A stretch of DNA of 64,000 nucleotides from Escherichia phage Murica (NC_041871.1), one strand, 5' to 3'. Counted from the stretch's first letter, positions 19,555-50,978 are shown. Program-made: numbers and translations. Notes: a model not told the origin generated them from the letters alone.

Positions 19555-19794
19555 ATGTACAAGTCATTTTCAATCTACTCAAGACAGGCGAAACACTACA
19601 CAGAGATCCTGATCACTCAGAAAAAATCTGTGGAAGGTGAGTGGGAATATCACCATAAAATGTTGCGTCCAGACTGGGTTTTTGATAGACTTATTGCTAT
19701 GATCCCTCTCGGAGAAGTATACCCTCTGACAGCCCATCGCGATGCTTGGGATTTAATTGATTACATAGATTCATTTAAGGAGCCTAGATTATGA
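19555..19794 (+). CDS. hypothetical protein
   Basis: ATG 19555 six nt after GAGGGGGT. Confidence 0.45.
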   Translation: MYKSFSIYSRQAKHYTEILITQKKSVEGEWEYHHKMLRPDWVFDRLIAMIPLGEVYPLTAHRDAWDLIDYIDSFKEPRL

Positions 19795-20189
19795 AGATTG
19801 AGATTACTAAAGAAGGTAAGAAAGTGTCCGGCAACTATGCAACAGTAATTCGGGATTTAATGTTTGAAGCCACCAAGATCGGTACATCTAAAGTTGGTCA
19901 AACTGTTAGTGTGAAAAGTAATATCTCCACAGGAGAGAAGGTATTCATTGTGGTCAAAGGGCAGGATCCCGTGGAAGGAACAGTGGGCCGAGGTGGCTAC
20001 CTGTGCATTTCTGAAGAGCCGCGTATGTTAGTGGCTGACGCTACTATGGGTGGGAAACGTGTGTGCGAGGCGGATGAGGTAATGATTATCCAACCTGTTG
20101 ATCCAGATGACCCAGCAACTTGGGTGGTAGGAAATGAAATCTTCTCTTTAGAAGAGTTATCCTTCCCAGCACCGCGCTCTGTTCAGTAA
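19791..20189 (+). CDS. hypothetical acidic protein
   Basis: AAGGAG SD; MKIEIT N-terminus. Confidence 0.5.
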   Translation: MKIEITKEGKKVSGNYATVIRDLMFEATKIGTSKVGQTVSVKSNISTGEKVFIVVKGQDPVEGTVGRGGYLCISEEPRMLVADATMGGKRVCEADEVMIIQPVDPDDPATWVVGNEIFSLEELSFPAPRSVQ

Positions 20190-20226
20190 TAATTTATCTT
20201 ACCAGGGACGGTAGGTAGGAGGTAGC

Positions 20227-20460
20227 ATGAAAGTTAAATTTCTTACAGATTTAGGGTACCCTTCCTTGGTTGACTGTGTTGGTAAAATTGTGGAAGCAAA
20301 ACGGCTATCTGCAAACGAGAATGTTGTCCTGGTTAAAGGGAAGGATTTACTAGCTGCAGGTGCAGAGTCTGGCAGGATCTCTCCTGATTATATGTATTAC
20401 CTATCTTTAAGTAATCTGCCAGAGCGAGGCGGTAAAGGCCTTGAAGTTGTGGAGGAGTGA
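20227..20460 (+). CDS. small acidic protein, KGxDLxAAGA paralog family
   Basis: MKVKFL...VKGKDLLAAGA...GLEVVEE; AGGAGG SD. Confidence 0.55.
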   Translation: MKVKFLTDLGYPSLVDCVGKIVEAKRLSANENVVLVKGKDLLAAGAESGRISPDYMYYLSLSNLPERGGKGLEVVEE

Positions 20461-20465
20461 CAGGT

Positions 20466-20990
20466 ATGCTTCTGATTAACTGGGAAGACCTCTATGGGGA
20501 CAAAGACCCTGTTGCGTTTGTTGATCGTAGGTGGAGATACACTGAAGAACAACTGGCGGCAAAAAATTTAACTGCAAAACGCAGAAAGATCATCCAGTGC
20601 AAGTACAAATACGCACAGTTTGCTGCAAAAGTGTCTCCACAAATCGAGAGCTTTGTGCTTAAATTGTATGACGAGTACCTCAAATTCAAATTGGATTTTG
20701 TGCAGGTGTACCGTGCACAGGTACGACCAGATACCAACATATGTAGATGGAAGGTTGTTTGTGAAGGTAAAGATTTGCCGCTCAGCTTGACAATTGAGTG
20801 GCGTTATGGGTATCATGAGTGTGGTCTGTATGATATTTGGGATGTCATTGTAGATCCTGCTAAGCATCTGAACACAGAGGAGCTGGAATATATCAATAAG
20901 GTTATTCTCGATATGTTTTTCAGCTACACACATGAAAACTCTGAGAAAGAACGGGATAATTTTCTTGACACCCTCAGCGACCATTTGTAG
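20466..20990 (+). CDS. hypothetical protein
   Basis: ATG 20466 eight nt after GGAGGAG. Confidence 0.5.
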   Translation: MLLINWEDLYGDKDPVAFVDRRWRYTEEQLAAKNLTAKRRKIIQCKYKYAQFAAKVSPQIESFVLKLYDEYLKFKLDFVQVYRAQVRPDTNICRWKVVCEGKDLPLSLTIEWRYGYHECGLYDIWDVIVDPAKHLNTEELEYINKVILDMFFSYTHENSEKERDNFLDTLSDHL

Positions 20991-21020
20991 TATACAATTT
21001 AACCTACAAAGGGAGGACCA

Positions 21021-21248
21021 ATGAGTATAAATGTTGTGCTAATAGGTTACCTGGTAATGTCCGTTATAACAGCGGTATTCTTGACAGGTGTATGCATCGT
21101 GTCCAGACGAAGGGTGAAGTTTGATGATTTTATCACCATCATCACTGCTGCACCTTTTTGGCCTGTTGTTATCTTCATCGTAATAATGTGCCTAGTTGAT
21201 TACTACAAGAATATCAGGAAGGAGAGTAGGGATGGAGACCGCACCTAA
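21021..21248 (+). CDS. small membrane protein (two hydrophobic helices)
   Basis: GGGAGG SD; hydrophobic segments LIGYLVMSVITAVFL and FWPVVIFIVIMCL. Confidence 0.5.
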   Translation: MSINVVLIGYLVMSVITAVFLTGVCIVSRRRVKFDDFITIITAAPFWPVVIFIVIMCLVDYYKNIRKESRDGDRT

Positions 21249-21384
21249 AACTATCTATACTGTTCTTAAAGAGATTGCGTTCTACGCAGATCTTAGCCAG
21301 GCACCTTTATGGGAAAAGAGCATGTATTTAAAATGGTGCGTTAATTTAGGGAGACCTTCCAGTGTTTCAAGCCATGTTTATTGA
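21232..21384 (+). CDS. hypothetical protein
   Basis: ATG after GGAAGGAGAG; overlaps upstream gene end. Confidence 0.35.
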   Translation: METAPKTIYTVLKEIAFYADLSQAPLWEKSMYLKWCVNLGRPSSVSSHVY

Positions 21385-21467
21385 GATGCTATCTGGGATA
21401 TTGTTACTAGTAGCCATCTTAGGTGGTGCAGTTCTGATGTATAACTATCTTGAAAAAGGAGACAGCA

Positions 21468-21653
21468 ATGGTAAAAAATAAATCTTTAGAGCAGGCTGAA
21501 AACCTTCTCCACGAGCTGGTAAAGGAGTGGAAAGTTGAATACTCAGATTTTAATGCACGAGAGGGTGAAGATTATTGGCCTACGGAGCGCTCAGAGGGCG
21601 AATGGTATCAAGATTTTATAGAGTGGTTATATCAGACGTGCGATGAGGGGTGA
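21468..21653 (+). CDS. hypothetical acidic protein
   Basis: ATG 21468 six nt after AAAGGAGA. Confidence 0.45.
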   Translation: MVKNKSLEQAENLLHELVKEWKVEYSDFNAREGEDYWPTERSEGEWYQDFIEWLYQTCDEG

Positions 21654-21655
21654 CG

Positions 21656-22120
21656 ATGTTTGTTAAATATGTAAAAACGTGCCTCAACAGTCTTGGCAGA
21701 GAGCATTGGTACACCTTGCTTGAAAAAGGGGAAATTTTAACAAAATCTGGAAAGATAACTTTGATACCTCTTGATAGTAAAGGTAAAGACCCGTCACGAC
21801 TTGTTATAGATGATTACGTTACAGGTGTGACGTTCGAGGTCTCTGTGGAGAGGTTAATACGCAGAGCTGGCGGCCCTTATGACCGAAGAGAGTATGTTTT
21901 CGATTCCGTTACAGAGATGGGGGAGCATCCGTCTTTAATGTTCAGGATGGTAATCAGAGATATGAGGTCATCTATAGATAGGATCGTAAAGGACATTAAG
22001 GAACCTTTTAGAGTAAAAGTTAAGAAGTTTTTCGATTCTAAGATTAACATACTCGCCGTTGCACTAGGTGTAGTTCAACTTCTGTTAATTTTGCACTATT
22101 TTGAACTACTATTTAAGTAG
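21656..22120 (+). CDS. hypothetical protein with C-terminal hydrophobic helix
   Basis: ATG 21656 after GAGGGG; C-terminal ILAVALGVVQLLLIL. Confidence 0.5.
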   Translation: MFVKYVKTCLNSLGREHWYTLLEKGEILTKSGKITLIPLDSKGKDPSRLVIDDYVTGVTFEVSVERLIRRAGGPYDRREYVFDSVTEMGEHPSLMFRMVIRDMRSSIDRIVKDIKEPFRVKVKKFFDSKINILAVALGVVQLLLILHYFELLFK

Positions 22121-22123
22121 TAG

Positions 22124-22150
22124 TTGAGATATGGCACAAAGGATGTGCCA
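22124..22150 (+). promoter_or_regulatory. promoter-like element with palindrome
   Basis: TTGAGA (22124-22129) then palindrome TGGCACAAAGGATGTGCCA (22132-22150); weak -10. Confidence 0.3.
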
Positions 22151-22182
22151 TAGTGAAATAAACTAAGAAAGAGGTAGAGAGA

Positions 22183-22530
22183 ATGCCAAAGATTAAAACG
22201 TTATTACTGTGGGTAGCTGTTTTAGCTTTTATAGGGTACTGGACTTGGGAAACTGAATTAAAAGATATCGGATATACCAGTCTTGAGAGCAAGGCGTGCA
22301 TTGGCATAACCGATGCGTTCAGGCAAAATGCTATGGATCACGAATGTGTTGATGCAGATATAGATGAGAAACTGTCTAAGGACAAAGATTTTTACCATGG
22401 GCATGCTTTACTTGATAGTGGTGACACTGTAGAGTTCTGGTCGTGGTTTCGTGAAGATGGAACAATAAAAACAGCAGTAAAGATCTCTAACAAAGAGTTA
22501 ATGCTGTTGCAGCAAAAGGAGGCTCAATGA
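22183..22530 (+). CDS. hypothetical protein with N-terminal hydrophobic segment
   Basis: AAGAGGTAGAGAGA SD; LLLWVAVLAFIGYW. Confidence 0.5.
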   Translation: MPKIKTLLLWVAVLAFIGYWTWETELKDIGYTSLESKACIGITDAFRQNAMDHECVDADIDEKLSKDKDFYHGHALLDSGDTVEFWSWFREDGTIKTAVKISNKELMLLQQKEAQ

Positions 22531-22814
22531 TCTGGATATCCTATGCTGATGGCACCATGCTGTATACTGCAGGTACCAGATATGAAGTTCAGGAGAACGA
22601 TAAAAAATTTATCGTAAAAACATTTGACAAGGACGACAACCTTTTGCTAGAATTGACTTACAAAGTTGGAGAGGTATCCAATATCCAGTTGGATTGTGGT
22701 CATAAAGATAATCCACTCAAAAAACCTGGAGTAGGTAAGGCTTCAGAAGAACGTCTGTCTCGTATTGCAGAAAGCGTTTCTCCCCAAAAATCTAAGAAGA
22801 GGACTAGAAAATGA
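22527..22814 (+). CDS. hypothetical protein
   Basis: ATGA overlap with upstream gene; AAGGAGG SD. Confidence 0.45.
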   Translation: MIWISYADGTMLYTAGTRYEVQENDKKFIVKTFDKDDNLLLELTYKVGEVSNIQLDCGHKDNPLKKPGVGKASEERLSRIAESVSPQKSKKRTRK

Positions 22815-23005
22815 AAAACTTACGTTTTAACACTTATTACTACAACACATTGAATGATTTGTATTATATTGTTCGAAGTAAAAGTCCTGAAACAGTCCTA
22901 TTCTGCCGCGAACCTTTCAAAGGGGAGGAAGTAGAGTCTGAGATGAATGTTAGCCAGATCACCTCTTTGTTGCTCTCAGGCGCAATGGAAGAAGCAATAT
23001 TCTAA
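22811..23005 (+). CDS. hypothetical protein
   Basis: ATGA overlap; AGAGGA SD. Confidence 0.4.
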   Translation: MKNLRFNTYYYNTLNDLYYIVRSKSPETVLFCREPFKGEEVESEMNVSQITSLLLSGAMEEAIF

Positions 23006-23023
23006 ACCAGGCAGGAGGGTTTT

Positions 23024-23212
23024 ATGAAGCACTATTGCCTGTCTGGTAGAATGGGTGCAGATTGTGATTGGGTTTTCTTAAAACTTGTCAGCATTCGAGA
23101 GTTCATCCCAGAGGAAGAGCAAGAAAGCGAGCTGATGTCATGGATCAACCATTACGGTAACACTTTTCGGCATGTTAAGGTAGAAGAGTTGCCAAGCGAG
23201 GCTGAATTATGA
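23024..23212 (+). CDS. hypothetical protein
   Basis: GGAGGG SD. Confidence 0.4.
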   Translation: MKHYCLSGRMGADCDWVFLKLVSIREFIPEEEQESELMSWINHYGNTFRHVKVEELPSEAEL

Positions 23213-23505
23213 AACTTTTTGAGTGGTTTAAAAAGTTTAAATATAAAGCTGTAGCCATCGTGCCGTGGTCCATTCAGTGGGTTGATGAAGGTGGTCTACC
23301 GATACCTGGTGACAAAGATACTGGGTACTGGATTATGATGGAGAACGGGTTTGGAAAGCGAAAGTATACGTGCACAAACTCTACTCGATCTGCACTTAAT
23401 AGAGTGCCCGGTTACAAACTTATGGTTGTGTGGAAAATGTCAGGCGTGCCTCCAGCCAATGCTCAATTTCTTACTGACAATCCGACCACGGTAGAGGGAG
23501 ATTGA
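23209..23505 (+). CDS. hypothetical protein
   Basis: ATGA overlap. Confidence 0.45.
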   Translation: MKLFEWFKKFKYKAVAIVPWSIQWVDEGGLPIPGDKDTGYWIMMENGFGKRKYTCTNSTRSALNRVPGYKLMVVWKMSGVPPANAQFLTDNPTTVEGD

Positions 23506-23789
23506 TAATGAAAAAGATTAACAGTAGTGAAGTAGAGTTTAAACTTGTCGGAAAAGGCACTTACTGGGAAGTTCGTCAAAAGGTATATTTGTTCGGTCTT
23601 ATTCCCTACTGGTCTAAATTCTACTGGGGAGCTAACGAGTTGGGAAGATATGCCACCAAATCAATGGCACTTATTGGTATAGCAGAGTACATTGCAGCCC
23701 GAGACAGGGTTGGAACCACTTATTACTACACTGCTGACGATATTCGTAACAGTGTTTACGTCCCACAACCACCTGATGGAGACCGTTGA
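23502..23789 (+). CDS. hypothetical protein
   Basis: GAGGGAG SD. Confidence 0.45.
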   Translation: MIMKKINSSEVEFKLVGKGTYWEVRQKVYLFGLIPYWSKFYWGANELGRYATKSMALIGIAEYIAARDRVGTTYYYTADDIRNSVYVPQPPDGDR

Positions 23790-24013
23790 TGAAAGTTAAA
23801 GTTTTAGATTCAAGCTTCTATATTGGTCAGGAGCCTTTAGTAGGAAAAGTGTTTACTGCTGTCCCTAACGAAGATTACCCTGACCTTTTAAAAATAAAAG
23901 GAGCAGATCTTATTGCCGCTGGTGCATCTCAGGAATGCTTTGACAGTCAGTGGACCTATAACTTTGCCCTAGGTGAGGATGTAGAGGTAGTGGAGGACGA
24001 TCATGAAGGTTAA
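23789..24013 (+). CDS. small acidic protein, KGxDLxAAGA paralog family
   Basis: MKVKVLD...IKGADLIAAGA...DVEVVED. Confidence 0.55.
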   Translation: MKVKVLDSSFYIGQEPLVGKVFTAVPNEDYPDLLKIKGADLIAAGASQECFDSQWTYNFALGEDVEVVEDDHEG

Positions 24014-24257
24014 AATTCTTGATTCTAACGTCTACTTGGGGCAATCCTTCCTGAATGGAAAGGTCGTTCCTGCGGTATACTTTGAAGGGTTGCCGTGGGA
24101 TGATCCTGTGCGGCAACATCACAATTATGTAGGCCACAACGTGGTGTTTATCTTGGGATCAGACCTGATCACCGCTGGTGCACCTGAATATTATTTCGGG
24201 GAAGAGTCCTACTATGCCTTTGGGGTAGGGTCAGATGCAGATATTGTAGAGCTGTGA
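24003..24257 (+). CDS. small acidic protein, KGxDLxAAGA paralog family
   Basis: MKVKILD...LGSDLITAGA...DADIVEL. Confidence 0.55.
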   Translation: MKVKILDSNVYLGQSFLNGKVVPAVYFEGLPWDDPVRQHHNYVGHNVVFILGSDLITAGAPEYYFGEESYYAFGVGSDADIVEL

Positions 24258-24269
24258 TGGGTAACCGTT

Positions 24270-24668
24270 GTGAAAAATAAACTGTTTAAAGTTACAATGA
24301 AAATTCGCGGGGCTTGGAGCGTAAAGCAAGGGCGTATTCCAGAATTTGAGAAAGACTTCTACGTAGTCTCCACCTCTGAGGAGGCTGCATGCTGGCAGGC
24401 TGGCTATGCCTATGCAAGAACCTGGTACGAAGGATACCAGACTGGGGGCTATGACGGAGAAATTATCAGCAAGGGTGTAGAAGAAATTAATGTGTTGACA
24501 AGTGAAAAAGTTTTTGTTATAGTGCATCCAGATTCCAGAGTGAAGCATTACTGGAATGCCAGAACAAAAACTTGGACACCGTTTGCAGATTCTGCTACGC
24601 CACTTTTAAACCAGAAAGCTCTTGACTCTGCCCCAAGTTATGGGGTTGTTGAAGAAAAGCTAAACTGA
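24270..24668 (+). CDS. hypothetical protein (paralog of 26479-26874)
   Basis: VFVIVHPDSRVKHYWNARTKTWTP resembles KFVMRHPHSNIAYYWDVLNNEWTP; start uncertain. Confidence 0.45.
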   Translation: MKNKLFKVTMKIRGAWSVKQGRIPEFEKDFYVVSTSEEAACWQAGYAYARTWYEGYQTGGYDGEIISKGVEEINVLTSEKVFVIVHPDSRVKHYWNARTKTWTPFADSATPLLNQKALDSAPSYGVVEEKLN

Positions 24669-24685
24669 AACAGTGAGGTGTCACC

Positions 24686-24976
24686 ATGATGGATTTAATT
24701 CTAAATATTGATAACGCAGGAGAGTTTAAAGACGATGGTGTAACAAGCATGGACAAACCCTGCTCTGCTAAGGTTGACTCAAAATGGACCTACAAGTTTG
24801 ACGGAGAGATCTTCGCAAATGATGAGAAGGTTGTAGATGCTGCAGCCATTTTAAACGCTCTAGGGTACGACCCTGTGAATTCTTTGATCAAGGATCCTGT
24901 TGAGTTTGCAGAGTATGTTCGAAAAATGGCAGATCTTGCTGTGGATATTTTAAAAACTATCGACAACAAGCTGTAA
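24686..24976 (+). CDS. hypothetical acidic protein
   Basis: GAGGTG SD. Confidence 0.45.
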   Translation: MMDLILNIDNAGEFKDDGVTSMDKPCSAKVDSKWTYKFDGEIFANDEKVVDAAAILNALGYDPVNSLIKDPVEFAEYVRKMADLAVDILKTIDNKL

Positions 24977-24982
24977 AAACTG

Positions 24983-25011
24983 TTGACACAACGCTTCAGA
25001 TTTAGTATCAT
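24983..25011 (+). promoter_or_regulatory. sigma70-like promoter upstream of hpf homologue
   Basis: TTGACA (24983-24988), 17 nt, TATCAT (25006-25011). Confidence 0.45.
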
Positions 25012-25060
25012 TGTTTTCAAAGAGAGATAGTTATTCCCTCTTCCTTAAAAGGAACACGTT

Positions 25061-25360
25061 ATGCAAATTGAAATCACTGGCAACAATGTAGAAATCACAG
25101 AAGGTATGGTATCTTTTATTTCCCGCAAAATGTCCAAGCTGGAGCGTTTACATCCCTCTGTTAACTATGCACGTGTGAGTGTAAAAGTTGAAAATGATCA
25201 CCAGGAAGTTATGGCGTTCATTTTTGACAATTCTGGAAAAGAAGTTATTGCCAAGGCTAAAGGCAGTGATGCTTACGAGGCAACTGACCGTATGGTAGAT
25301 GTTGCAGCACGTCAGCTGGCTAAATGCGGTGGAAAGAAAGGTAAGGGGAAGGCAAAGTAA
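25061..25360 (+). CDS. hpf: ribosome hibernation promoting factor homologue (HPF/YfiA family)
   Basis: MQIEITGNNVEITEGM...VSVKVE...AKGSDAYEATDRMVDVAARQLAK parallels E. coli HPF MQLNITGNNVEITEAL...VVLKVE...AIDGLIDKLARQLTK. Confidence 0.85.
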   Translation: MQIEITGNNVEITEGMVSFISRKMSKLERLHPSVNYARVSVKVENDHQEVMAFIFDNSGKEVIAKAKGSDAYEATDRMVDVAARQLAKCGGKKGKGKAK

Positions 25361-25389
25361 AGATTGACTTTGGAGAATGAGGTGCTACA

Positions 25390-25491
25390 ATGGGTGTGAT
25401 TAAGAAATTAGTCCCAAATGTAGAGATTGCATGCTTTGAAATTATGTTTGCAATCGCAGTTGTAGTTAATGTGTTAGGTTACGGCTATTAA
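25390..25491 (+). CDS. hydrophobic micropeptide (33 aa)
   Basis: MGVIKKLVPNVEIACFEIMFAIAVVVNVLGYGY; GAGGTG SD. Confidence 0.3.
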   Translation: MGVIKKLVPNVEIACFEIMFAIAVVVNVLGYGY

Positions 25492-25517
25492 TATCAAATA
25501 ATTGAGGAGACCTCTAA

Positions 25518-25787
25518 ATGAAAATTAAATTATTCCAAACTGAGCTGGCAGACAAAAATTGTGGACTGGTTGAAGGCATGATTGTTGAAGCACAACCAGT
25601 GGACTATATGAAGGTGGTTCGTGATGCCCTAGGTGAAGGTTTTGATCTGATGGAGCCAGCTCTGCGAGAAGATGTTATCGAGATGGCTAAAAAGCACACA
25701 CCTGAAGGTTTGGTGGTGTTTGTTGCACCGGGTAACGGAGAAGAGTTGATTGTAACTCCTGATGTGTATGAGATTGTAGAGGAATAA
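25518..25787 (+). CDS. small acidic protein (family-like, ends YEIVEE)
   Basis: MKIKLF...VVFVAPGNGEELIV...DVYEIVEE. Confidence 0.5.
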   Translation: MKIKLFQTELADKNCGLVEGMIVEAQPVDYMKVVRDALGEGFDLMEPALREDVIEMAKKHTPEGLVVFVAPGNGEELIVTPDVYEIVEE

Positions 25788-25878
25788 TCCTGCTTGGATT
25801 AGCATACTTCCTCGCTAAGGAAGATTTGTAATTATTTGTGGGAAAGGAGTCCCAATCTCTTACCAGAGGTGATACTAT

Positions 25879-26142
25879 ATGATTGTTTATTTTAAAACTT
25901 CAGGTGGATACCCTGATTCTCAAAGCTTGATCGGAAAAACGTGCACAGCATACTCACCTCTTGATGAGGAGGTAAGCGATATTTTACGAAATATGTATCG
26001 GATTGACCCCCAAGAAGCCTTTGATCAAAACCTTGTATTTGTCAAGGGCTCAGATATGAAGTCTTTGGGAGCATTCCCTGAAGCAGATGATGATGCCGTT
26101 TATTCGTTCATGACTCCTTTTGAAGCTATGGTTGTTGGGTGA
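25879..26142 (+). CDS. small acidic protein (family-like)
   Basis: LVFVKGSDMKSLGA resembles family KGxDLxAAGA motif. Confidence 0.45.
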   Translation: MIVYFKTSGGYPDSQSLIGKTCTAYSPLDEEVSDILRNMYRIDPQEAFDQNLVFVKGSDMKSLGAFPEADDDAVYSFMTPFEAMVVG

Positions 26143-26146
26143 TAAT

Positions 26147-26479
26147 ATGAAAGTACGCTTTATTGGTGAAACAATTCCTGTGCATCTCCGGTCGCCTGAG
26201 GATTCTGCAGATCTTGCATCTCAAAAGGCGAGAGGTTATGATAAGAAAGTAACCTCAACCGATGTAGTGCTTGAGGCTACTAGTCTACCTGACCCTGCTG
26301 CATTCTTTAATCATTATGGGTACTATTTCAGCAATCTGATGAATATCGGTGAGCTTGTGTTTATTAGTGGTGGAGAAATTGTTAGCAAGCTTGGCGGCGA
26401 TCCGGATATCTTTCATGAAACCTGTCCTTTTGCATTTGTGGTAGGTTCAGATGTGGAAGTTATTGAGGAGGTGCGGTAA
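26147..26479 (+). CDS. small acidic protein (family-like)
   Basis: MKVRFIGE...LVFISGGEIVSKLG...GSDVEVIEE; track start 26120 lies in upstream gene. Confidence 0.45.
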   Translation: MKVRFIGETIPVHLRSPEDSADLASQKARGYDKKVTSTDVVLEATSLPDPAAFFNHYGYYFSNLMNIGELVFISGGEIVSKLGGDPDIFHETCPFAFVVGSDVEVIEEVR

Positions 26480-26874
26480 TGGTAAGCCTATACCGTGTTG
26501 AGTATAGCTCAGATACTGTATACAACGTAAGAAGCAAAGATCGCAGCGACAGAGTGCAAGAAATGTATGTTCTTGCCGACAGTCCGTTATCTGCAGCGTT
26601 CAAGGCAGGGGCTCTTGCATCTCGTTGGAAATTTGAAGGTGGATCTTTCTATGAAGAAACCCTTGAAGATTCTGTTGTTATTTCTTCTGTAGAGGTTTCA
26701 GATGACTACGAAGGGAAAAAGTTCGTAATGCGGCACCCACACAGCAACATTGCGTACTACTGGGATGTTCTGAACAACGAGTGGACCCCAGATCTTCAGA
26801 AGGCTACTGTGCTAACACCGTTTTTGGCAGATAAGTTCCCACCAGAAGGTAATTTATCCGCACTGTTTCAGTAA
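26479..26874 (+). CDS. hypothetical protein (paralog of 24270-24668)
   Basis: Shared RHPxS...YW...WTP block; GAGGTG SD. Confidence 0.5.
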   Translation: MVSLYRVEYSSDTVYNVRSKDRSDRVQEMYVLADSPLSAAFKAGALASRWKFEGGSFYEETLEDSVVISSVEVSDDYEGKKFVMRHPHSNIAYYWDVLNNEWTPDLQKATVLTPFLADKFPPEGNLSALFQ

Positions 26875-26882
26875 TTTTCTTG

Positions 26883-26923
26883 CACACAGGTGTTGACAAC
26901 GCCAACCCTGTGTGAAATAATAC
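26883..26923 (+). promoter_or_regulatory. sigma70-like promoter flanked by inverted repeat
   Basis: CACACAGG (26883-26890) ... TTGACA (26893-26898) ... CCTGTGTG (26907-26914) ... TAATAC (26918-26923). Confidence 0.4.
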
Positions 26924-26953
26924 CTTCATCTTAACAAGACAGGGGACCGATTG

Positions 26954-27211
26954 ATGAAGATTAAATTGAAAAACCTTGAAACGGCAGAGATTCAGGACGG
27001 TGTTGATTTCCGTTCTAAAGATGGTGACATCTTAGAGGTAAATATTCCAACCTACGAGCTGATTAAAGGTTTTGGCAACGTTCCGGAAGAGGATATTACA
27101 GAAATTCTTATGATGTTGATTCTTGACGGAACTGTGTTTGTAGGTGAAGGTGAGAACGCTATTGCAATCCCAGGCCATTTTTATGAAGTAGTTGACGAAG
27201 AGGTGCTGTAA
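26954..27211 (+). CDS. small acidic protein (family-like)
   Basis: MKIKLKNL...HFYEVVDEEVL. Confidence 0.5.
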   Translation: MKIKLKNLETAEIQDGVDFRSKDGDILEVNIPTYELIKGFGNVPEEDITEILMMLILDGTVFVGEGENAIAIPGHFYEVVDEEVL

Positions 27212-27562
27212 ATGAAAGTAGAAATTACCGGTTTTGATGTGAATGTGGTTCCGGAAGATATTTTAGCTAAACTTCCAGAAGGTTTTGGTAACGGCGTTGT
27301 GGTGGATGCTGTTCCTCCTACCAAAGACATTCTGCTGCAGTATGGTGTAGCAGAGGAAGATGTCGATAAAGTTCTTACAATGATGGCAATCGATCGTGTT
27401 GTCGTTGTTAAAGGTCTCGATAATTTTGAGAGTGATCCCCTGATTATTCGTGGAGATGACTACAAAATCATCGATAATGAAGGCCAAGAGTTCTATGAAC
27501 CTTGTGCAGAAGATATTCTTAACTTATTACTGGAAGCAGGTACCGAAGAGGAGGACGAATAA
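27212..27562 (+). CDS. small acidic protein
   Basis: MKVEITG...; GAGGTG SD. Confidence 0.5.
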   Translation: MKVEITGFDVNVVPEDILAKLPEGFGNGVVVDAVPPTKDILLQYGVAEEDVDKVLTMMAIDRVVVVKGLDNFESDPLIIRGDDYKIIDNEGQEFYEPCAEDILNLLLEAGTEEEDE

Positions 27563-27891
27563 TGAAGATTGACCCGTTACTGAAGGCTCGTGCAGAAAAA
27601 GCGTACACCATTAAGCTGACCAACCTGGTTCCTACTTGTCATCCAGATGTAGGTTGGCCTGAAGGTCTGGTAGAGGGGACTGTAACAGCTGCATACCTCC
27701 CTAACATCAAATACCTTATGGAAATCTTGGAGCTGGATGAGGAAACGGCAGAAGAGTTCCAGTTGGACATGAAACAAAGTGGGACTCTGGTTATTCACGG
27801 GTGGTATAATACTAAAGACGCAGAAGACCCTCTTGTAACTTCTAATCTGGCATATGAAATCTTAGGACCTTTGAACCTGGGGGAAGACTAA
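27562..27891 (+). CDS. small acidic protein
   Basis: GAGGAGG SD; start overlaps upstream stop. Confidence 0.5.
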   Translation: MKIDPLLKARAEKAYTIKLTNLVPTCHPDVGWPEGLVEGTVTAAYLPNIKYLMEILELDEETAEEFQLDMKQSGTLVIHGWYNTKDAEDPLVTSNLAYEILGPLNLGED

Positions 27892-28178
27892 TGAAAGATC
27901 TGGTTAAGATTAAGATTAAAGATACCAACGGCGAACTCAGCCATTTTGGAATTAATGATGGTGACGAGCTGATCGCACACCTGCCTACCAAGGAAGTTGT
28001 AAGCAAAGCAGTTGCCGGAGAAGAAGATGCAATGCAGGCTGCAGGTGTGGATGAAAACTATGTAGCCATGTGCATGTGCCGAGACCAGGTTGTTCTGTAT
28101 AAAGCGTATCGACCAAACGGAGCCACGGAGTGGCTTGTATTCCGACCCGAAGGATATGAAATCTTAGAGGCACTATGA
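27891..28178 (+). CDS. small acidic protein
   Basis: GGGGGAAG SD; start overlaps upstream stop. Confidence 0.5.
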   Translation: MKDLVKIKIKDTNGELSHFGINDGDELIAHLPTKEVVSKAVAGEEDAMQAAGVDENYVAMCMCRDQVVLYKAYRPNGATEWLVFRPEGYEILEAL

Positions 28179-28258
28179 TAAATCTTGCCAAGGTTGCAAC
28201 GGCACTGTTAATTATTTGCTGGTCAGTAACCTTAACACTGTGTCTTGTATTTCAGTAA
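28175..28258 (+). CDS. hydrophobic micropeptide (27 aa)
   Basis: MINLAKVATALLIICWSVTLTLCLVFQ; ATGA coupling to upstream gene. Confidence 0.3.
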   Translation: MINLAKVATALLIICWSVTLTLCLVFQ

Positions 28259-28267
28259 GGTGCTTAT

Positions 28268-28531
28268 ATGAACATCCTGATGTGGGTTGTAGCAGTGGCG
28301 TTTGTTGCATGTTTTTGCTGCTGGGTTGCGGTGAGGATTTCTGTAGCTACCCTTCGGAAGTTGGGGTTCTCAGAGTGGGATATTAATATCCTTTCTTTTC
28401 GCAATGAAACAATCTCAGCCGCCCTGCTCTGTAAGAAATTCAAGTGGGAACCTTGCGAGGTCATGAACTATCTAAGAACGGGAGATATCCCTGAAAGATT
28501 TAAAAAAGTTCTTGACGACAAGGATAAATGA
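28268..28531 (+). CDS. membrane-anchored small protein
   Basis: N-terminal MNILMWVVAVAFVACFCCWVAV; AAGGTG SD. Confidence 0.5.
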   Translation: MNILMWVVAVAFVACFCCWVAVRISVATLRKLGFSEWDINILSFRNETISAALLCKKFKWEPCEVMNYLRTGDIPERFKKVLDDKDK

Positions 28532-28559
28532 TAGTATAGTGACTAACAAGAGGTGAGGA

Positions 28560-28700
28560 ATGACTGATTTTACTGAAGCTTTAATGATGGCCTTGTCTGT
28601 TTTAGCGCTATCGGTGTGTTTTGGGGCGTTATTCACATCTCTGGTTAAAGTTTTACATACAGTATTATTACCCAAGGAGCGCAGTAATGACGAAGATTGA
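28560..28700 (+). CDS. hydrophobic micropeptide (46 aa)
   Basis: MTDFTEALMMALSVLALSVCFGALFTSLVKVL...; AGGTGAGG SD. Confidence 0.4.
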   Translation: MTDFTEALMMALSVLALSVCFGALFTSLVKVLHTVLLPKERSNDED

Positions 28701-28938
28701 CTTAAATGCTGGAGACCATGTTGTTGTCAAATGCATCGGAGATTATCTTGGATTCACAATCGGCAATACTTACGAGGCGGTAGTGGCGAAGGTTTACCAT
28801 GATAAAGTCCTCAGTCTTGTATTTGACTGCGATGATGATGGGGATGACCGATACGTCTGTGAGGTGCTGGCACGAGACGATAGTGAAGACCAGAAATTCC
28901 TGGTTATTGAACTGAACGGTATTTTTGTAGAACGTTAA
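28687..28938 (+). CDS. hypothetical acidic protein
   Basis: ATG 28687 after AAGGAG. Confidence 0.5.
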   Translation: MTKIDLNAGDHVVVKCIGDYLGFTIGNTYEAVVAKVYHDKVLSLVFDCDDDGDDRYVCEVLARDDSEDQKFLVIELNGIFVER

Positions 28939-28966
28939 TTTAAAACAACATAAGGAGACTCTTACT

Positions 28967-29272
28967 ATGGCTAAATCTAAAGTTGAACTGTTCACCTCTC
29001 TTCCTTCTGACACTGCAGAGCGTGATCGCCTTCGCAAAACAATCGAAGAACTGGTAGAACTCCAACTTCAGATTAAAGATCTGAAAGATGCCATTAAGGA
29101 TATCATTCTCGTTGAGAAGCAGGATCACCTGTATTCTCCTAAATTCATCAAATCTCTGGTGGCTACCGAGTTCGATATTCGCTATGAGGCTGAAAAACGT
29201 CGCGCTAAAATCGAAGAAGAGGTTGAGCACATGTCTGAGGCAGACATTCTGTTCAAACGCTCTGTAGAATAA
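28967..29272 (+). CDS. hypothetical coiled-coil protein
   Basis: AAGGAGA SD; charged heptad-like sequence. Confidence 0.5.
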   Translation: MAKSKVELFTSLPSDTAERDRLRKTIEELVELQLQIKDLKDAIKDIILVEKQDHLYSPKFIKSLVATEFDIRYEAEKRRAKIEEEVEHMSEADILFKRSVE

Positions 29273-29278
29273 TGACAA

Positions 29279-29305
29279 AGAGAGGGGCTTGGGCCCCTCT
29301 TTTTA
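29279..29305 (+). terminator. intrinsic terminator
   Basis: AGAGGGGC-ttgg-GCCCCTCT then TTTTT. Confidence 0.65.
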
Positions 29306-29327
29306 CTATCTATGAAGGAGATTTGAG

Positions 29328-29654
29328 ATGGGTATACCAATCACTGTAAAAGAATTGAATGAGCGTGATGCAGGCGGTCTATGGCCTGCACGAAAAATCC
29401 GCTGCGTCTATATGAAAGAGAATCTTGAACATCTTGATCAACAGATCAAGGTCGGTGATATTTTTGAGGTCTTCTATTCCAATCGTCGTAACTGGGAAAC
29501 CATTCAACCTTCTGGTTTTGTTCTTGCCAAACTTGACACTGGAGAAGTGATTATCCCTGGGTTGGATATTGTCTTCGAAATTATCCAGGAGTGGGATCCG
29601 GATAAGATTAGATACGAAGAGTTATTCGGTAAAGGTATTATCAAACCTGTGTGA
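29328..29654 (+). CDS. hypothetical protein
   Basis: GAAGGAGA SD. Confidence 0.5.
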   Translation: MGIPITVKELNERDAGGLWPARKIRCVYMKENLEHLDQQIKVGDIFEVFYSNRRNWETIQPSGFVLAKLDTGEVIIPGLDIVFEIIQEWDPDKIRYEELFGKGIIKPV

Positions 29655-29662
29655 GGTGGATT

Positions 29663-29962
29663 ATGTCTACAAAGGCGGCTAAATACTCCTACATGCCATC
29701 AACCTCTGCAGAGGTAGACTTTAGTTTCGATGTGTTTCCACTGTTTGAGGTGGTTCTGGCATACCCAACAATACTATCTACTCCTGAATCACTTGTACCT
29801 GTTAAGTTGCAGAACGCTATGCATTCTATGCACTACAACAATAAATGTAGGCACAGATGGTGTCAGGACGAGGAAAAAGATTTGGATAGTTTGAGGGATT
29901 TTGACAGTCACCTTTTGACACCTTTCAGCTACTCCAACCTTGATAAGCCCTCATGGGTATAG
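29663..29962 (+). CDS. hypothetical protein
   Basis: ATG 29663 after GAGGTGG. Confidence 0.45.
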   Translation: MSTKAAKYSYMPSTSAEVDFSFDVFPLFEVVLAYPTILSTPESLVPVKLQNAMHSMHYNNKCRHRWCQDEEKDLDSLRDFDSHLLTPFSYSNLDKPSWV

Positions 29963-29986
29963 CAAAATATCAAATTTAAGACACCT

Positions 29987-30013
29987 AGGACGCTCTGTGG
30001 CGTCCTTTTCTTT
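29987..30013 (+). terminator. intrinsic terminator
   Basis: AGGACGC-tctgtg-GCGTCCT then TTTCTTT. Confidence 0.6.
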
Positions 30014-30175
30014 ATCTGGTGCACGATTGCATACCTTGGACAGATAATCTCGTTACAGAGCGTTTAAGAGCTTTCTACAAACAAGTCTCTCTTTCGAGCG
30101 TAGCGAGAACGCACGTCCGTTTTGACCAAAATCACCATACGCTCGGATTTTAACCAAACCCTCGCGGCGTTGCTG

Positions 30176-30204
30176 TTGACACATTACCGCTCCCGTGATA
30201 GTAT
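30176..30204 (+). promoter_or_regulatory. sigma70-like promoter with extended -10
   Basis: TTGACA (30176-30181), 17 nt, TGaTAGTAT (-10 at 30199-30204). Confidence 0.55.
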
Positions 30205-30236
30205 CCACACACAGTTTGGAGAATATGGAATACACA

Positions 30237-30326
30237 ATGAGAACATTGTCTGAAGTTTTAGTGGTGATCCTGATGATCATTACTTCCATAGCGGCTGTTG
30301 CCGGAATACTCACGGGTGGAACATGA
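30237..30326 (+). CDS. hydrophobic leader micropeptide (29 aa)
   Basis: MRTLSEVLVVILMIITSIAAVAGILTGGT; stop overlaps next start (ATGA). Confidence 0.3.
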   Translation: MRTLSEVLVVILMIITSIAAVAGILTGGT

Positions 30327-30535
30327 TCAACACACATGCACCTGAAGAGACATCCAAAGGAGTGACCATATGTCCCTTGGCTGAGCCAGTTAGAGAGGAA
30401 AACTTAGATTCTGAGGACTCTTCATCTTCGTCCCAGACAGATCCTGAGGCTGATGACCTGACGTGGGAGGACATCGTAGATATCTGGTTCTCTATTATGC
30501 CTGAGCACGAAGAGTTCAGAGGTGGTAGACTATGA
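30323..30535 (+). CDS. hypothetical highly acidic protein
   Basis: Ser/Asp/Glu-rich (DSEDSSSSSQTDPEADD); GGGTGG SD. Confidence 0.45.
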   Translation: MINTHAPEETSKGVTICPLAEPVREENLDSEDSSSSSQTDPEADDLTWEDIVDIWFSIMPEHEEFRGGRL

Positions 30536-30655
30536 AGCACCGAGCCCACACAGGTTCCTCATGCTAAAGCATGGCCTGAAGAGGCAAACGTGTATAATTC
30601 CTGTGCATTGTGACGTATAAAACCCGTTCACACTCTCATTTCCAGAGGAGATTTT

Positions 30656-30871
30656 ATGAAGATAGAAATATTTGGTGGAGCTGACAACACTCGTGGCCTG
30701 ATTTACCTGGAATTCGATGAATCATACCTGCCAGAGGTGTTAAATATAGACTCTGTTGCTGAGGCTTTGGGAGTAAACCCTAAAGAACTCCACTCTTGTG
30801 CTGAGATCGATGGTTGGGAAGAGACCATGAACATTGATTTCAGTGAAGTAGAGGATGAACCGCTGGACTGA
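30656..30871 (+). CDS. small acidic protein
   Basis: MKIEIFGG...; GAGGAG SD; last + strand gene before the noncoding region. Confidence 0.5.
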   Translation: MKIEIFGGADNTRGLIYLEFDESYLPEVLNIDSVAEALGVNPKELHSCAEIDGWEETMNIDFSEVEDEPLD

Positions 30872-30962
30872 CACACAATTAGCTGCCCGGCTAAAGTGCT
30901 GGAGCACCTACAATACATCTTTCAACTAAATTTCCCACCACCACAATCACTTACCTTCCACA

Positions 30963-31025
30963 CATGACTGTTTGCTTGTTTAGTGAGCAGTCATGCCTTG
31001 ACATTCTTGCCTATCCTGATAAAAT
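30963..31025 (+). promoter_or_regulatory. sigma70-like promoter with upstream inverted repeat, firing into ORF-free region
   Basis: CATGACTG (30963-30970) / CAGTCATG (30988-30995); TTGACA (30998-31003), 16 nt, TAAAAT (31020-31025). Confidence 0.45.
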
Positions 31026-32349
31026 TAAGTTCTTCTCTTTTCTTTTACCGAGTAATTCGGGTTTTCTGTTCTCTTCGGTTTGAAGGGGTATGGAGATACA
31101 CCTGAGTGAACATGGTGAACAACCGAACATTTGGCTATGGCATTAGCATGGCGAAGCGGACGGGTGACGAAAGAGGGGCCGGAGGACACCAGTCACTGCC
31201 ATATGATATATGGGTGATAACCTGAAGAGTCTGAATAAGTGTTTAAGTACCAGTCAGAGGAAAAGGTGAATGGTAGCCGAAGGGGGAGGGGGGTTTCTTG
31301 TATCTTTAATTTGTATATTATGTATACACTCGTAAACCAATCTCATCTGAATCTGTTTACCACACAAAGTAGATAGGGACAAATATCACCTATTAAACTT
31401 GAATTATTTATAGAAAATACCACAACACCACTTAAGTCTTTGATTTTACACACAAATCCTACAGATATTCAACCTCTATATTTAACATATTCATAACATA
31501 TTCCATACTCTACCTGTCTGATCAATTTACCCAACCACATCCTCCATATTTTCCCTGTCTGTACCACCCCTGCCCCGCCGGGAGTCCCGTCATATCTGGC
31601 TTTCCAGCAAATATCACACCCACAAATATCATTGCCTGAAGAGGGTTTCATCCCATAGTACATGCCTTACCTGAAGAGCGCTTCATACACCACGTAAATT
31701 TTTTAATTTACCCCCCCTCCCCGCCGCCGGAGTGGTCGGCTTTTCCCACACAGGCCTGAAGAGTCAGCCAGAAATATCTGAACAGGTCCAGTTATACCAC
31801 GATTTTGACCTGACCGACAGGAGTGCTGCCAGGCGGACGGAATGGGAATACTTCTCATTCTTATAATAATTCTCAAATATCGAGGCAGTGAGGCAAATTA
31901 ATAGGTGAGGCCGTTCACACAGTGGCACAACATTTGCAATCTATTTTGTGAGGGTGAATGAGAATACCTATCATTGTGAGAACTGTTATCATTACGGGCA
32001 ATTTAACATAATACCCATTATGCGCACCACTGGCGATCCATACAGGGATTGATAACATGAGTTACAGTTTACGCATATAACAATCATATTTCTTACTATT
32101 TGTGTGGGATATAGTTAGCAGCCGATAGATTAGATATTGACCTGTGGACTTCCAACCGTCTAGACGTCTAAACGCCCACACAACAAGGATTATACATACA
32201 TTACTGAATGTAAACAGGGCCGCAAAAATGCTACCATACCAGATTGTAAATTTTTCATGCAGCACTTGACAAAGAGGAGAAAAACTTGTCTGACACAATA
32301 TGACATACTGGGCACATTAAACACACTTTAGACTTAATTGACATGCCTG

Positions 32350-32469
32350 ACTGTTTACGCTGTCACTATTCACGCTATTACTATTCACTCCCTTTACTGT
32401 TCACGCTCTTACTGTTTACATGCTTAATGGTTTACATGACCAATAGTTTACATAGCTAACTATTTACAT
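32350..32469. repeat. iteron array: 8 direct 11-bp repeats at 15-16 bp period
   Basis: actgtttacgc, actattcacgc, actattcactc, actgttcacgc, actgtttacat, atggtttacat, atagtttacat, actatttacat starting at about 32350, 32365, 32380, 32396, 32411, 32427, 32443, 32459. Confidence 0.8.
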
Positions 32470-32481
32470 GGAAATGATAAG

Positions 32482-32762
32482 CCATGCCATTCGTTTGCAT
32501 GATAACTATTAGCAAGTTAATAATCTTTCGCTGGCTATGCCAGGTGACCTTTGGTCACCCCTTCGGGTGTTTCTATGACATAATATAAAAGCAGGGCAAC
32601 TATTAGAAGATCTATAGTTGCCTTGCTTGTTATGTCATGATTAACTAAATACAAGGCAACTATGATCTGATTAATAGTTTGCAAACAAACTATCACGGGG
32701 GGTGATGGTTACTGCTTTTATATTATGTCGCGACTCCGTCGCGCCATGCCATTCGTTTGCAT
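32482..32762. repeat. nested direct/inverted repeat complex
   Basis: 19-bp direct repeat CCATGCCATTCGTTTGCAT (32482 and 32744); 18-bp inverted repeat TGACATAATATAAAAGCAG (32576) / CTGCTTTTATATTATGTC (32712); palindromes GGTGACC-ttt-GGTCACC (32543-32559) and GGCAACTAT-N10-ATAGTTGCC (32595-32622). Confidence 0.75.
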
Positions 32763-33388
32763 AGTTGCCTTATTGTTACAGATAAAATAATTGTATTGTT
32801 AATTATTTCTTATCTTTCTCTTAGTCATCTAATGATTCCAGTCAGTATAGTAATGTACAGTAAACATTAGACGACTAAAGATTTATATGCTTATAATAAC
32901 TTACAGTGACAATTTCGGACTGTTTACGAAAAATGTTGACACCTGAGCCGATTTATGTTATGCAGTTTACACGAATAATTATTTTATGCAGGTATTGACT
33001 ATTCCGTTATTCTATGGTCGGAATAAATACTTAGCAGTCTATAGAATGGTGACGCTACGTGAATTCTGGAATTTAGTGGCTATAGTTATACCCGATTTTT
33101 CACGTAGAACACGCTTTTGTGGTTATGTAAGTGTATGACTTATAAAGATTTTTAGTTGTTGACAAGACACTGAAGATATGCATCAGGTTAAATTTTGTGC
33201 AATAGCTGCATTACGTGCAATTTTGGAAGGAAAAACGTGTAAAAATGGCCCTGCTACCACACAATGAAAGATTATGCAATAGCTATTTTATATGTATGTT
33301 TGTACAGTGTGTGGGATTGATGGCTAGTCAATTATTCCACTTGCCAGGTGGGGACGTTTGTGGTAGGAGAAATACAGACAAAAAGAAA

Positions 33389-33406
33389 GGGGCCTTTTAA
33401 AGCCCC
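33389..33406 (-). terminator. terminator closing the - strand arm
   Basis: GGGGC-cttttaaa-GCCCC with U-tract on - strand (complement of AAAAGAAA 33381-33388). Confidence 0.5.
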
Positions 33407-33425
33407 TGATAGTTTAGTTAAGAAA

Positions 33426-50293: not shown

Positions 50294-50596
50294 TTAATCG
50301 TCAAGTTCAAAATAGATTTTAACAGCTTCATCAAAGATTGGAATCCCAATGTTGTTGATAAGCTGCCAAACTACCATATCTTTACCTGGATCTGGGAGAA
50401 TGTCAACCTTTCTCCATGCGCTGTATATCCAGTTCGGACCACCTTCTGCACTAACTGGCAGATTTTCACCAGCCTCCTGCAGATACTTATACAGCAAAAG
50501 ATATTCTGGATACTCTAGAACACTGTCCTCTGTAGTATATAGCAGTTCACGGTATACTTTTAAGAACCCTGCTGGGGTAATGTTTTCAGTCTTCAT
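50294..50596 (-). CDS. hypothetical protein
   Basis: ATG after GGAGAAG; track start 50614. Confidence 0.45.
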   Translation of the reverse strand: MKTENITPAGFLKVYRELLYTTEDSVLEYPEYLLLYKYLQEAGENLPVSAEGGPNWIYSAWRKVDILPDPGKDMVVWQLINNIGIPIFDEAVKIYFELDD

Positions 50597-50978
50597 TTGC
50601 CGCTTCTCCTGCATTCATCAGGTCTGCCATAGCGTCACCTACGAAGAGAACAACCACATCGTTGACAGCGTCAGCATCATCTTTATTGACGTTGCTGAAT
50701 TTAGGACACACCGCAATGATCATATAGACACCGTTACCAACCTGAACTGTCCGTGTGGTGCACATCATGGCGGTATTTGTGCCTTCTTTGAAGGCGAAGC
50801 CTTGAAGACGCTCCTCTAAAGTGTTACCGGTAGATTTCAGAAGCGCCAGCTCGTCCAAGGCATAGATGATATCTCCGGAAGTTAGTGTTGCCTTTCCATC
50901 AGACACCATAATAACTCCATCAGCACCGTCAAGCTTAGAGGCTTCAAAGATATCAATATCCCAAATATTTTTCATCAC
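50586..50978 (-). CDS. hypothetical protein
   Basis: 130 codons. Confidence 0.45.
   Translation of the reverse strand: MMKNIWDIDIFEASKLDGADGVIMVSDGKATLTSGDIIYALDELALLKSTGNTLEERLQGFAFKEGTNTAMMCTTRTVQVGNGVYMIIAVCPKFSNVNKDDADAVNDVVVLFVGDAMADLMNAGEAANED

Follow-up and report, generated by a model that had tools for sequence, protein, structure and literature searches.

Two families of small acidic proteins in a tandem gene array of Escherichia phage Murica: membership, predicted folds and a possible strain-specific role

The genome of Escherichia phage Murica (NC_041871.1) contains a dense run of small genes, several of which code for paralogous acidic proteins of two families, here termed A and B. 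We analyzed a stretch of 64,000 nucleotides of this genome, henceforth the window; positions are counted from its first letter and genes are named by their first nucleotide. The source phage is a Vequintavirus, i.e. an rV5-like E. coli myovirus. The array extends from 19791 to 30871 on the + strand. An earlier description, made by a model from the sequence alone (the sequence-only reading), had pointed out a closely packed array of small + strand genes, and this was borne out: we counted 34 small genes, 30 of which encode proteins of 60-132 amino acids (aa). Together they cover 88% of the interval, and overlaps of stop and start codons are frequent. The interval aligned over at least 80% of its length with 114 phage records at 90-99.5% identity, and its open reading frames (ORFs) are annotated as hypothetical genes in more than 110 vequintavirus genomes.

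Judged by sequence comparison, five of the array proteins, 20227, 23789, 24003, 25879 and 26147, are true paralogues and form family A. In an all-versus-all BLASTP of the array proteins 23789 was linked to 24003 (E = 1.6e-14) and to 20227 (7e-7), 20227 to 25879 (2e-3), and 26147 to 23789 and 24003 (about 5e-4). Hidden Markov models (HMMs) were then built with one member left out at a time and run against all ORFs of the window with 40 aa or more, 462 in number. In every case the omitted A member ranked first (E = 7e-22 to 2e-5). An HMM derived exclusively from 26 relatives outside the vequintaviruses retrieved exactly the five A ORFs (E = 5e-23 to 8.5e-7); the next ORF had an E-value of 0.89. 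Finally, none of 300 shuffled versions of each member attained the score of the real protein. Because of the shuffle test and the independent HMM the similarity of the A proteins cannot be compositional, and an artefact of composition was thus ruled out. The family signature reads MKVK(L/I)L..GGY.G...(V/I)GK(V/I)V.A, a variable insert, and (V/I).G.(D/E)L(I/L).AGA....F.....Y.F..G.E.E(V/I)(I/V)EE. In a search of the PHROGs, 38 of 39 A sequences matched phrog_5009, the window members with E-values from 1.7e-38 to 1.2e-4. PHROG 5009, like PHROGs 13367, 13920 and 13661, is a phage protein cluster of unknown function which carries no description of function, fold or paralogy; 25879 and 26147 are filed in separate PHROGs despite their membership in family A.

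The proteins 25518, 26954, 27212, 27562 and 27891 constitute, again on the evidence of profile searches, a second family, B. With leave-one-out HMMs every B member came out at the top of the 462 ORFs (E = 9e-4 to 2e-6), and all other ORFs had E-values of 0.016 or worse. Four of the B genes (26954-28178) are contiguous behind a single promoter. Two further candidates were discarded. The product of 30656 resembles A and B proteins, but neither model retrieved it in leave-one-out searches. The - strand ORF 50586-50978 was matched once by a B model with an E-value of 0.016, which became 9.9 with the full model.

How do the two families relate to each other? The sequence-only reading had assembled seven genes, among them 25518 and 26954, into a single paralogous family with an MK[IV]K start, a central block and an acidic C-terminus. 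The five A genes of this set stood. 25518 and 26954, however, scored 2.2 and 1.5 bits against the A model, i.e. inside the range of their own shuffles, and the central G-x-D/E-L-I-x-A-G-A block is absent from both. The profiles of A and B matched each other with a probability of 6.5%, confined to the N-terminal strand. This ruled out a single family of seven. All that A and B have in common is the MK[IV]K strand at the N-terminus and an acidic strand at the C-terminus. The sequence-only reading was right in proposing that a small acidic fold has been duplicated and has diverged; the outcome is two families of five members and not one. Acidity is pronounced in both. Nine of the ten proteins have isoelectric points of 4.05-4.7 and net charges of -7 to -21, the remaining one, 20227, has an isoelectric point of 5.4 and a net charge of -1. 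Asp and Glu (D+E) make up 13-25% of the residues.

Two pairs of A genes are each followed directly by a gene of a third kind, termed partner family C. The two C proteins, 24270 and 26479, are paralogous (BLASTP, E = 7e-10) and both belong to PHROG 7379. Thus, two A-A-C blocks exist, 23789-24003-24270 and 25879-26147-26479. The second one is flanked by gaps of 91 and 79 nucleotides (nt), and its internal gaps are 4 and -1 nt. Relatives of family C were not found outside the vequintaviruses. The coordinates of all genes and features considered are compiled in Table 1.

Table 1. Members of families A, B and C and other features of the array (positions in the window)
Feature	Position	Strand	Remarks
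Family A, 77 aa, bas54_0166	20227..20460	+	Assigned by BLASTP, HMM and shuffles; PHROG 5009; in transposon sequencing non-essential on K-12, no depletion on the clinical isolate
Family A, 74 aa, bas54_0159	23789..24013	+	AlphaFold-modelled (pLDDT 92); opens the first A-A-C block
Family A, 84 aa, bas54_0158	24003..24257	+	Overlaps gene 23789 by 11 nt
Partner C1, 132 aa, bas54_0157	24270..24668	+	PHROG 7379; start at 24297 in other annotations
Family A, 87 aa, bas54_0152	25879..26142	+	Helical insert; opens the second A-A-C block
Family A, 110 aa, bas54_0151	26147..26479	+	Long insert; assigned by BLASTP, HMM and shuffles
Partner C2, 131 aa, bas54_0150	26479..26874	+	PHROG 7379; start overlaps the stop of 26147
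Family B, 89 aa, bas54_0153	25518..25787	+	Alone between two intergenic gaps
Family B, 85 aa, bas54_0149	26954..27211	+	AlphaFold-modelled; first of four back-to-back B genes
Family B, 116 aa, bas54_0148	27212..27562	+	Net charge -21; assigned by leave-one-out HMM
Family B, 109 aa, bas54_0147	27562..27891	+	Assigned by leave-one-out HMM
Family B, 95 aa, bas54_0146	27891..28178	+	Assigned by leave-one-out HMM
Ribosome hibernation factor homologue	25061..25360	+	Pfam Ribosomal_S30AE; outside families A and B
Sigma-70-like promoter	26893..26921	+	TTGACA-17-AATAAT with TG; precedes the four-gene B block
Array gene outside A/B, 99 aa	29663..29962	+	99% identical to bas54_0140; no Pfam match

Conventional domain searches gave next to nothing. 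For the ten A and B proteins of the window Pfam returned no family at E ≤1, save two noise matches for 27891, and for the 39 A-family sequences none at E ≤0.1. Specifically, no Pfam model for KOW or NusG/Spt5, SH3 or Tudor domains matched A, and the anti-restriction and anti-defence families represented in Pfam (Ocr, ArdA, Tad2/DUF2829 and others) matched neither A nor B. Sequence and profile searches of the PDB were equally without a match for both families. A catalytic motif was not found in any A or B member, in agreement with the sequence-only reading. The genes are protein-coding and under purifying selection: across seven vequintavirus genomes the ratio of non-synonymous to synonymous polymorphism (pN/pS) was 0.03-0.35 for nine of the ten members, the tenth, 27212, having no synonymous differences. 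The lowest values were those of 25879 (0.03), 26479 (0.04), 24270 (0.06) and 26147 (0.10).

Structure prediction suggested a fold for family A. The AlphaFold model of 23789 is an SH3-like five-stranded β-barrel with a predicted local distance difference test score (pLDDT) of 92. The domain begins right at the initial Met (MKVK), the conserved G-x-D/E-L-I-x-A-G-A block forms a turn or helix, and the acidic strand (E-V-V-E-E) is the last element. As modelled, the barrel superposes on SH3, KOW or PsaE domains and would thus fall into the class of SH3-like small β-barrels. Sequence identity to such barrels (KOW domains of Spt5/NusG, PsaE, SH3 domains, the C-terminal domain of retroviral integrase) is just 4-24%, and the GxDLIxAGA element together with the acidic C-terminal strand is unique to family A among the SH3-like barrels compared. 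For B the model of 26954 (pLDDT 88.3) begins and ends with strands and carries a two-helix insertion behind strand 2, so that B proteins are predicted to be β-rich domains with a helical insert of roughly 30 residues. Its best structural match among viral proteins (BFVD) was an 86-aa protein of Vibrio phage Vc1, with a template modelling (TM) score of 0.78 and 32% identity; a deeper sequence search for B relatives returned vequintavirus sequences alone. In the predicted models of A and B the helical insert is situated between strands 2 and 3, which is also the position of the insert in 25879. Therefore, as far as the models go, a common origin of A and B is possible. The BFVD match lists of the two families have three weak entries in common, with TM scores of 0.41-0.46 for B. 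The B model also matched an 83-aa protein of vequintavirus CM1 (A0A5B9MT80; BFVD, E = 0.021, TM 0.52), which may be the orthologue of the 83-aa acidic protein encoded at 28687-28938. This hints at a further small β-rich array protein of similar shape.

Family A is widely distributed. An HMMER scan of 1.8 billion representative proteins yielded 38 clusters. Members are present in the Proteus phages RS51pmB and Isfahan, in Vibrio phage CHOED and in Providencia and Moellerella genomes, where they lie in prophage-like regions; eleven IMG/VR contigs with lengths of 20-66 kb carry the family as well. A lambdoid prophage of E. coli has one A copy in an accessory ("moron") position, flanked by the Q antiterminator and the holin. 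Loci were scanned with one of our alignments (A6) as the query, another one (A4) being too divergent. Tandem copies recur in unrelated contigs: two of them (L021, L020) carry three copies each, in L021 adjacent, and CHOED and RS51pmB carry two each. Fusion proteins with two or three A domains exist as well, and one vequintavirus protein (P0009) is a natural in-frame recombinant of 23789 and 24003. Accessory genes typically behave in this way. For C-terminal extensions and multi-domain relatives of A (P0113, P0119, P0127, P0128) the Pfam search was uninformative. In CHOED the A domain of CHOED_040 (L004, 4557-5216) follows in frame right after a complete homing endonuclease (HNH_3 plus helix-turn-helix); the second copy, CHOED_039, is the next gene. 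We do not count CHOED_040 as an informative fusion; the endonuclease was probably inserted.

For the partner protein 26479 the sole sequence matches in the PDB were three ubiquitin-conjugating (E2) enzymes of the Rad6 type, with weak E-values of 0.41-0.78. In the alignments the motifs FEGG.F, F..HP and W(S/T)P were in register. With hhalign, 26479 scored 28% against a set of five sequences of E2 enzymes and ubiquitin E2 variants (UEVs), the best value among 37 proteins (the next one was 2.6%), whereas a joint profile of 26479 and 24270 dropped to 3%. Neither the E2 family of Pfam (UQ_con) nor a profile search of the PDB gave an E2 match for 26479 or 24270. Compared with the E2 (UBC) core and with the Cys-less UEVs, 26479 has Tyr or Trp at the position of the catalytic Cys and is too short for the C-terminal helices. 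We treat the E2 similarity as a weak lead only.

Functional evidence came from a preprint in which transposon insertions were mapped in the vequintavirus Bas54 (MaxBurger) (bioRxiv 10.1101/2025.11.20.689424). The proteins of the Bas54 genes mapped to the window are 99-100% identical. On E. coli K-12 all A, B and C genes were non-essential or intermediate and insertions were tolerated (bioRxiv 10.1101/2025.11.20.689424). On a clinical isolate, zero reads were recovered for bas54_0152, bas54_0151 and bas54_0150, corresponding to 25879, 26147 and 26479, with log2 fold changes of -7.16, -6.17 and -6.77 and an adjusted p of 0 (bioRxiv 10.1101/2025.11.20.689424). This is the complete second A-A-C block. 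The other C gene, bas54_0157 (24270), was moderately depleted (log2 fold change -2.14, adjusted p 0); the value of -2.78 for bas54_0153 (25518) was non-significant, and the remaining A and B genes were unchanged (bioRxiv 10.1101/2025.11.20.689424). The main text of the preprint does not discuss the three lost genes; follow-up concerned only bas54_0063 and bas54_0140 (bioRxiv 10.1101/2025.11.20.689424). The latter is the orthologue of array gene 29663, which is outside families A and B. A knockout confirmed that it is required against DS-28, a predicted defence system of E. coli CFE311 (bioRxiv 10.1101/2025.11.20.689424).

Dispensability on K-12 together with loss on the clinical isolate argues for a host-specific role of these genes, probably in counter-defence. 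Most likely, 26479 and no fewer than two of the A proteins fulfil a function which is specific for the host strain and directed against a variable defence. For the families as a whole we suggest that the A and B proteins are acidic, non-enzymatic binding modules, i.e. stoichiometric binders of strain-variable host factors, most probably of components of anti-phage defence; we give this proposal an even chance. The array is an accessory-gene region of a Vequintavirus in which two families of small acidic proteins have grown by tandem duplication. Devoid of enzymatic activity, the A and B proteins would bind, in stoichiometric amounts, host proteins that vary from one E. coli strain to another, most probably defence components, and each paralogue would cover a separate target or target variant. 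25879 and 26147 would cooperate with 26479 as one three-gene unit which is dispensable on K-12 and needed on the clinical isolate.

Precedents for such a mode of action are known. TifA (Orf65) of the enterococcal phage phi47 is an SH3-like and very acidic protein (21.3% D+E) that binds type IV restriction enzymes (PMC11322646). Nip of phage phi3T is SH3-like and binds the SpbK NADase (PMC11984713). Like the A proteins, both are phage proteins of small or modular build that contain an SH3-like domain. The D+E content of TifA is comparable with the range given above, and TifA as well as Nip works by binding a defence protein directly. The likeness is an analogy of fold class and charge alone and not homology, and the hosts differ (Firmicutes). 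T7 Ocr, ArdA and similar DNA-mimicking anti-restriction proteins likewise are small, acidic and non-enzymatic, reside in phage accessory regions and are probably expressed early, as A and B may be; however, Ocr and ArdA are mainly helical dimers, in contrast to the β-barrels predicted here. A and B are uncharacterised examples of a familiar class, the small acidic phage accessory proteins.

Several points weigh against a general counter-defence role of A and B. For no A or B member has a target or an interaction partner been reported. Three A and all five B members were not significantly depleted on the clinical isolate. The host-interaction or counter-defence role proposed by the sequence-only reading is partly supported, namely by the tolerance of insertions on K-12, the strain-specific loss of 25879 and 26147 and the anti-defence function of the 29663 orthologue; eight of the ten proteins lack a significant phenotype. 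That a gene is needed on one strain could also stem from physiology or from the lack of a host factor and not from defence. The A and B genes are conserved in the genus and not fast-evolving, and a motif as constant as that of A speaks for one shared partner more than for diversified targets. Duplication on its own is no proof of counter-defence. In addition, the stored data of the preprint are ambiguous: sheet S6 of supplementary file 9 is labelled as K-12 versus CFE303, yet its command line names a '311' (CFE311) sample. Sheets S6 and S7 are identical over comparable rows (bas54_0169-0186). Consequently, one host comparison is seemingly missing from the stored file, and a single comparison is readable.

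Alternatively, A and B could be host take-over factors. They would bind conserved machinery such as RNA polymerase, Rho/NusG partners, the ribosome or nucleoid proteins and tune physiology rather than block immunity, and a strain-specific need would mirror physiological differences between hosts. The array indeed contains a ribosome hibernation factor, and it is located behind nucleotide-metabolism, PhoH-like and ClpP-like genes and equipped with sigma-70-like promoters. The A motif is kept across very different phages, which fits a conserved target, and insertions in 25879, 26147 and 25518 reached merely 'intermediate' saturation even on K-12. On the other hand, KOW or any other Pfam domain was not matched even at E ≤1, the strongest phenotype is strain-specific, and insertions in all members were tolerated on K-12. 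We regard take-over as an unlikely explanation.

Another explanation, in our estimation equally unlikely, is that the partner gene 26479 (and with it 24270) alone matters. Depletion of the A genes would then be a polar effect, and both families would consist for the most part of redundant or near-neutral accessory genes without a strong role in the hosts tested. Since 25879, 26147 and 26479 are adjacent in one tightly packed block, polarity onto 26479 could account for the loss of A-gene insertions, which is a further point against assigning the phenotype to A. Gene 25518 just upstream dropped partially and non-significantly, eight of ten family members were without a significant phenotype in the two hosts tested, and in rV5 the orthologue of 27891 is split into two ORFs. 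Yet 23789 and 24003, directly upstream of the depleted 24270, were not depleted. Widespread polarity is also argued against by the authors of the preprint, who state that, as a rule, insertions located upstream of essential genes were tolerated (bioRxiv 10.1101/2025.11.20.689424). The low pN/pS values of 25879 and 26147 demonstrate strong constraint. Furthermore, insertion saturation on K-12 was 0.71 and 0.73 for 25879 and 26147 compared with 1.0 for 26479 (bioRxiv 10.1101/2025.11.20.689424). This indicates that insertions in the A genes act beyond the loss of 26479.

A bolder version of the counter-defence proposal takes the duplicated A-A-C unit as a multi-component module. Two SH3-like acidic proteins and a Cys-less E2-like (UEV-like) protein would act jointly on a host system particular to the strain, which they would block or divert and which may be a defence based on ubiquitin-like conjugation, and duplication of the whole unit would have generated two modules with different host specificities. 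This is speculative and we consider it quite improbable. A role of A and B in the virion, be it structural, in assembly or as chaperones, is very remote: the one array product seen in virions by mass spectrometry, 21656 (rV5 ORF 133), whose PHROG is annotated as a structural protein, belongs to neither family, the main text of the rV5 virion paper names only this ORF from the array and no A or B orthologue, and all members tolerate transposon insertions on K-12. Matches to known structural virion proteins, which like a purely compositional similarity would have spoken against the sequence-only reading, were not seen; no member is a reported virion protein.

As to the surroundings, PhoH-like, ClpP-like protease and methyltransferase genes lie 5' of the array and a 2.5-kb non-coding stretch lies 3' of it. 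The sole named gene within the array of annotated relatives is the ribosome hibernation factor. Sigma-70-like promoters occupy the few intergenic gaps of the array. Examples are those at 24983-25011 and 26893-26921, which are P144 and P150 as predicted in rV5. These promoter sequences suggest early expression of the array by the host RNA polymerase. A literature search for rV5 paralogues or transcriptomics had no useful result, and no transcript data were found; a paper on defence islands of enterohaemorrhagic E. coli does not cover the array genes. A block of six genes at 21656-23209, which includes the orthologue of rV5 ORF 133, is missing from Bas54 (L011, 13666-13754, compared with 21656-23505 of the window). 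Hence, part of the array is variable among close relatives. Among the related GenBank records 18 with MG0656xx accessions (e.g. C12, MG065635) are entitled 'Campylobacter phage', although they are 98-99.5% identical to E. coli vequintaviruses and the window. Probably, these are mislabelled or contaminant assemblies.

The non-coding region 30872-33425 parts the array on the + strand from genes on the - strand. It is AT-rich, with a GC content of 0.33-0.40 at 32300-33400. The sequence GGCAACTAT is present in six exact copies in the 64 kb, four of which, in both orientations, are within 32595-32769. In addition, 32577-32594 and 32712-32729 form a perfect 18-nt inverted repeat, and a 20-nt direct repeat, likewise perfect, is found at 32481 and 32743. 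In the Bas54 counterpart of this region no insertions were tolerated (bioRxiv 10.1101/2025.11.20.689424). By these features the region looks like a replication origin.

The genomes of large lytic phages contain small genes without a known function by the dozen, and sorting them by family, fold and phenotype is a first step toward their understanding. Here, five 'hypothetical' genes of a phage group relevant for therapy were combined into one family with a predicted SH3-like fold which occurs across Escherichia, Proteus and Vibrio phages and is prone to tandem multiplication. Family A was further tied to transposon data that had not been interpreted in this respect, i.e. a three-gene block which is needed on a clinical E. 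coli isolate and not on K-12. If the proposed counter-defence role is true, family A would represent a widespread new inhibitor scaffold, and its genes would help to predict the host range of rV5-like therapeutic phages.

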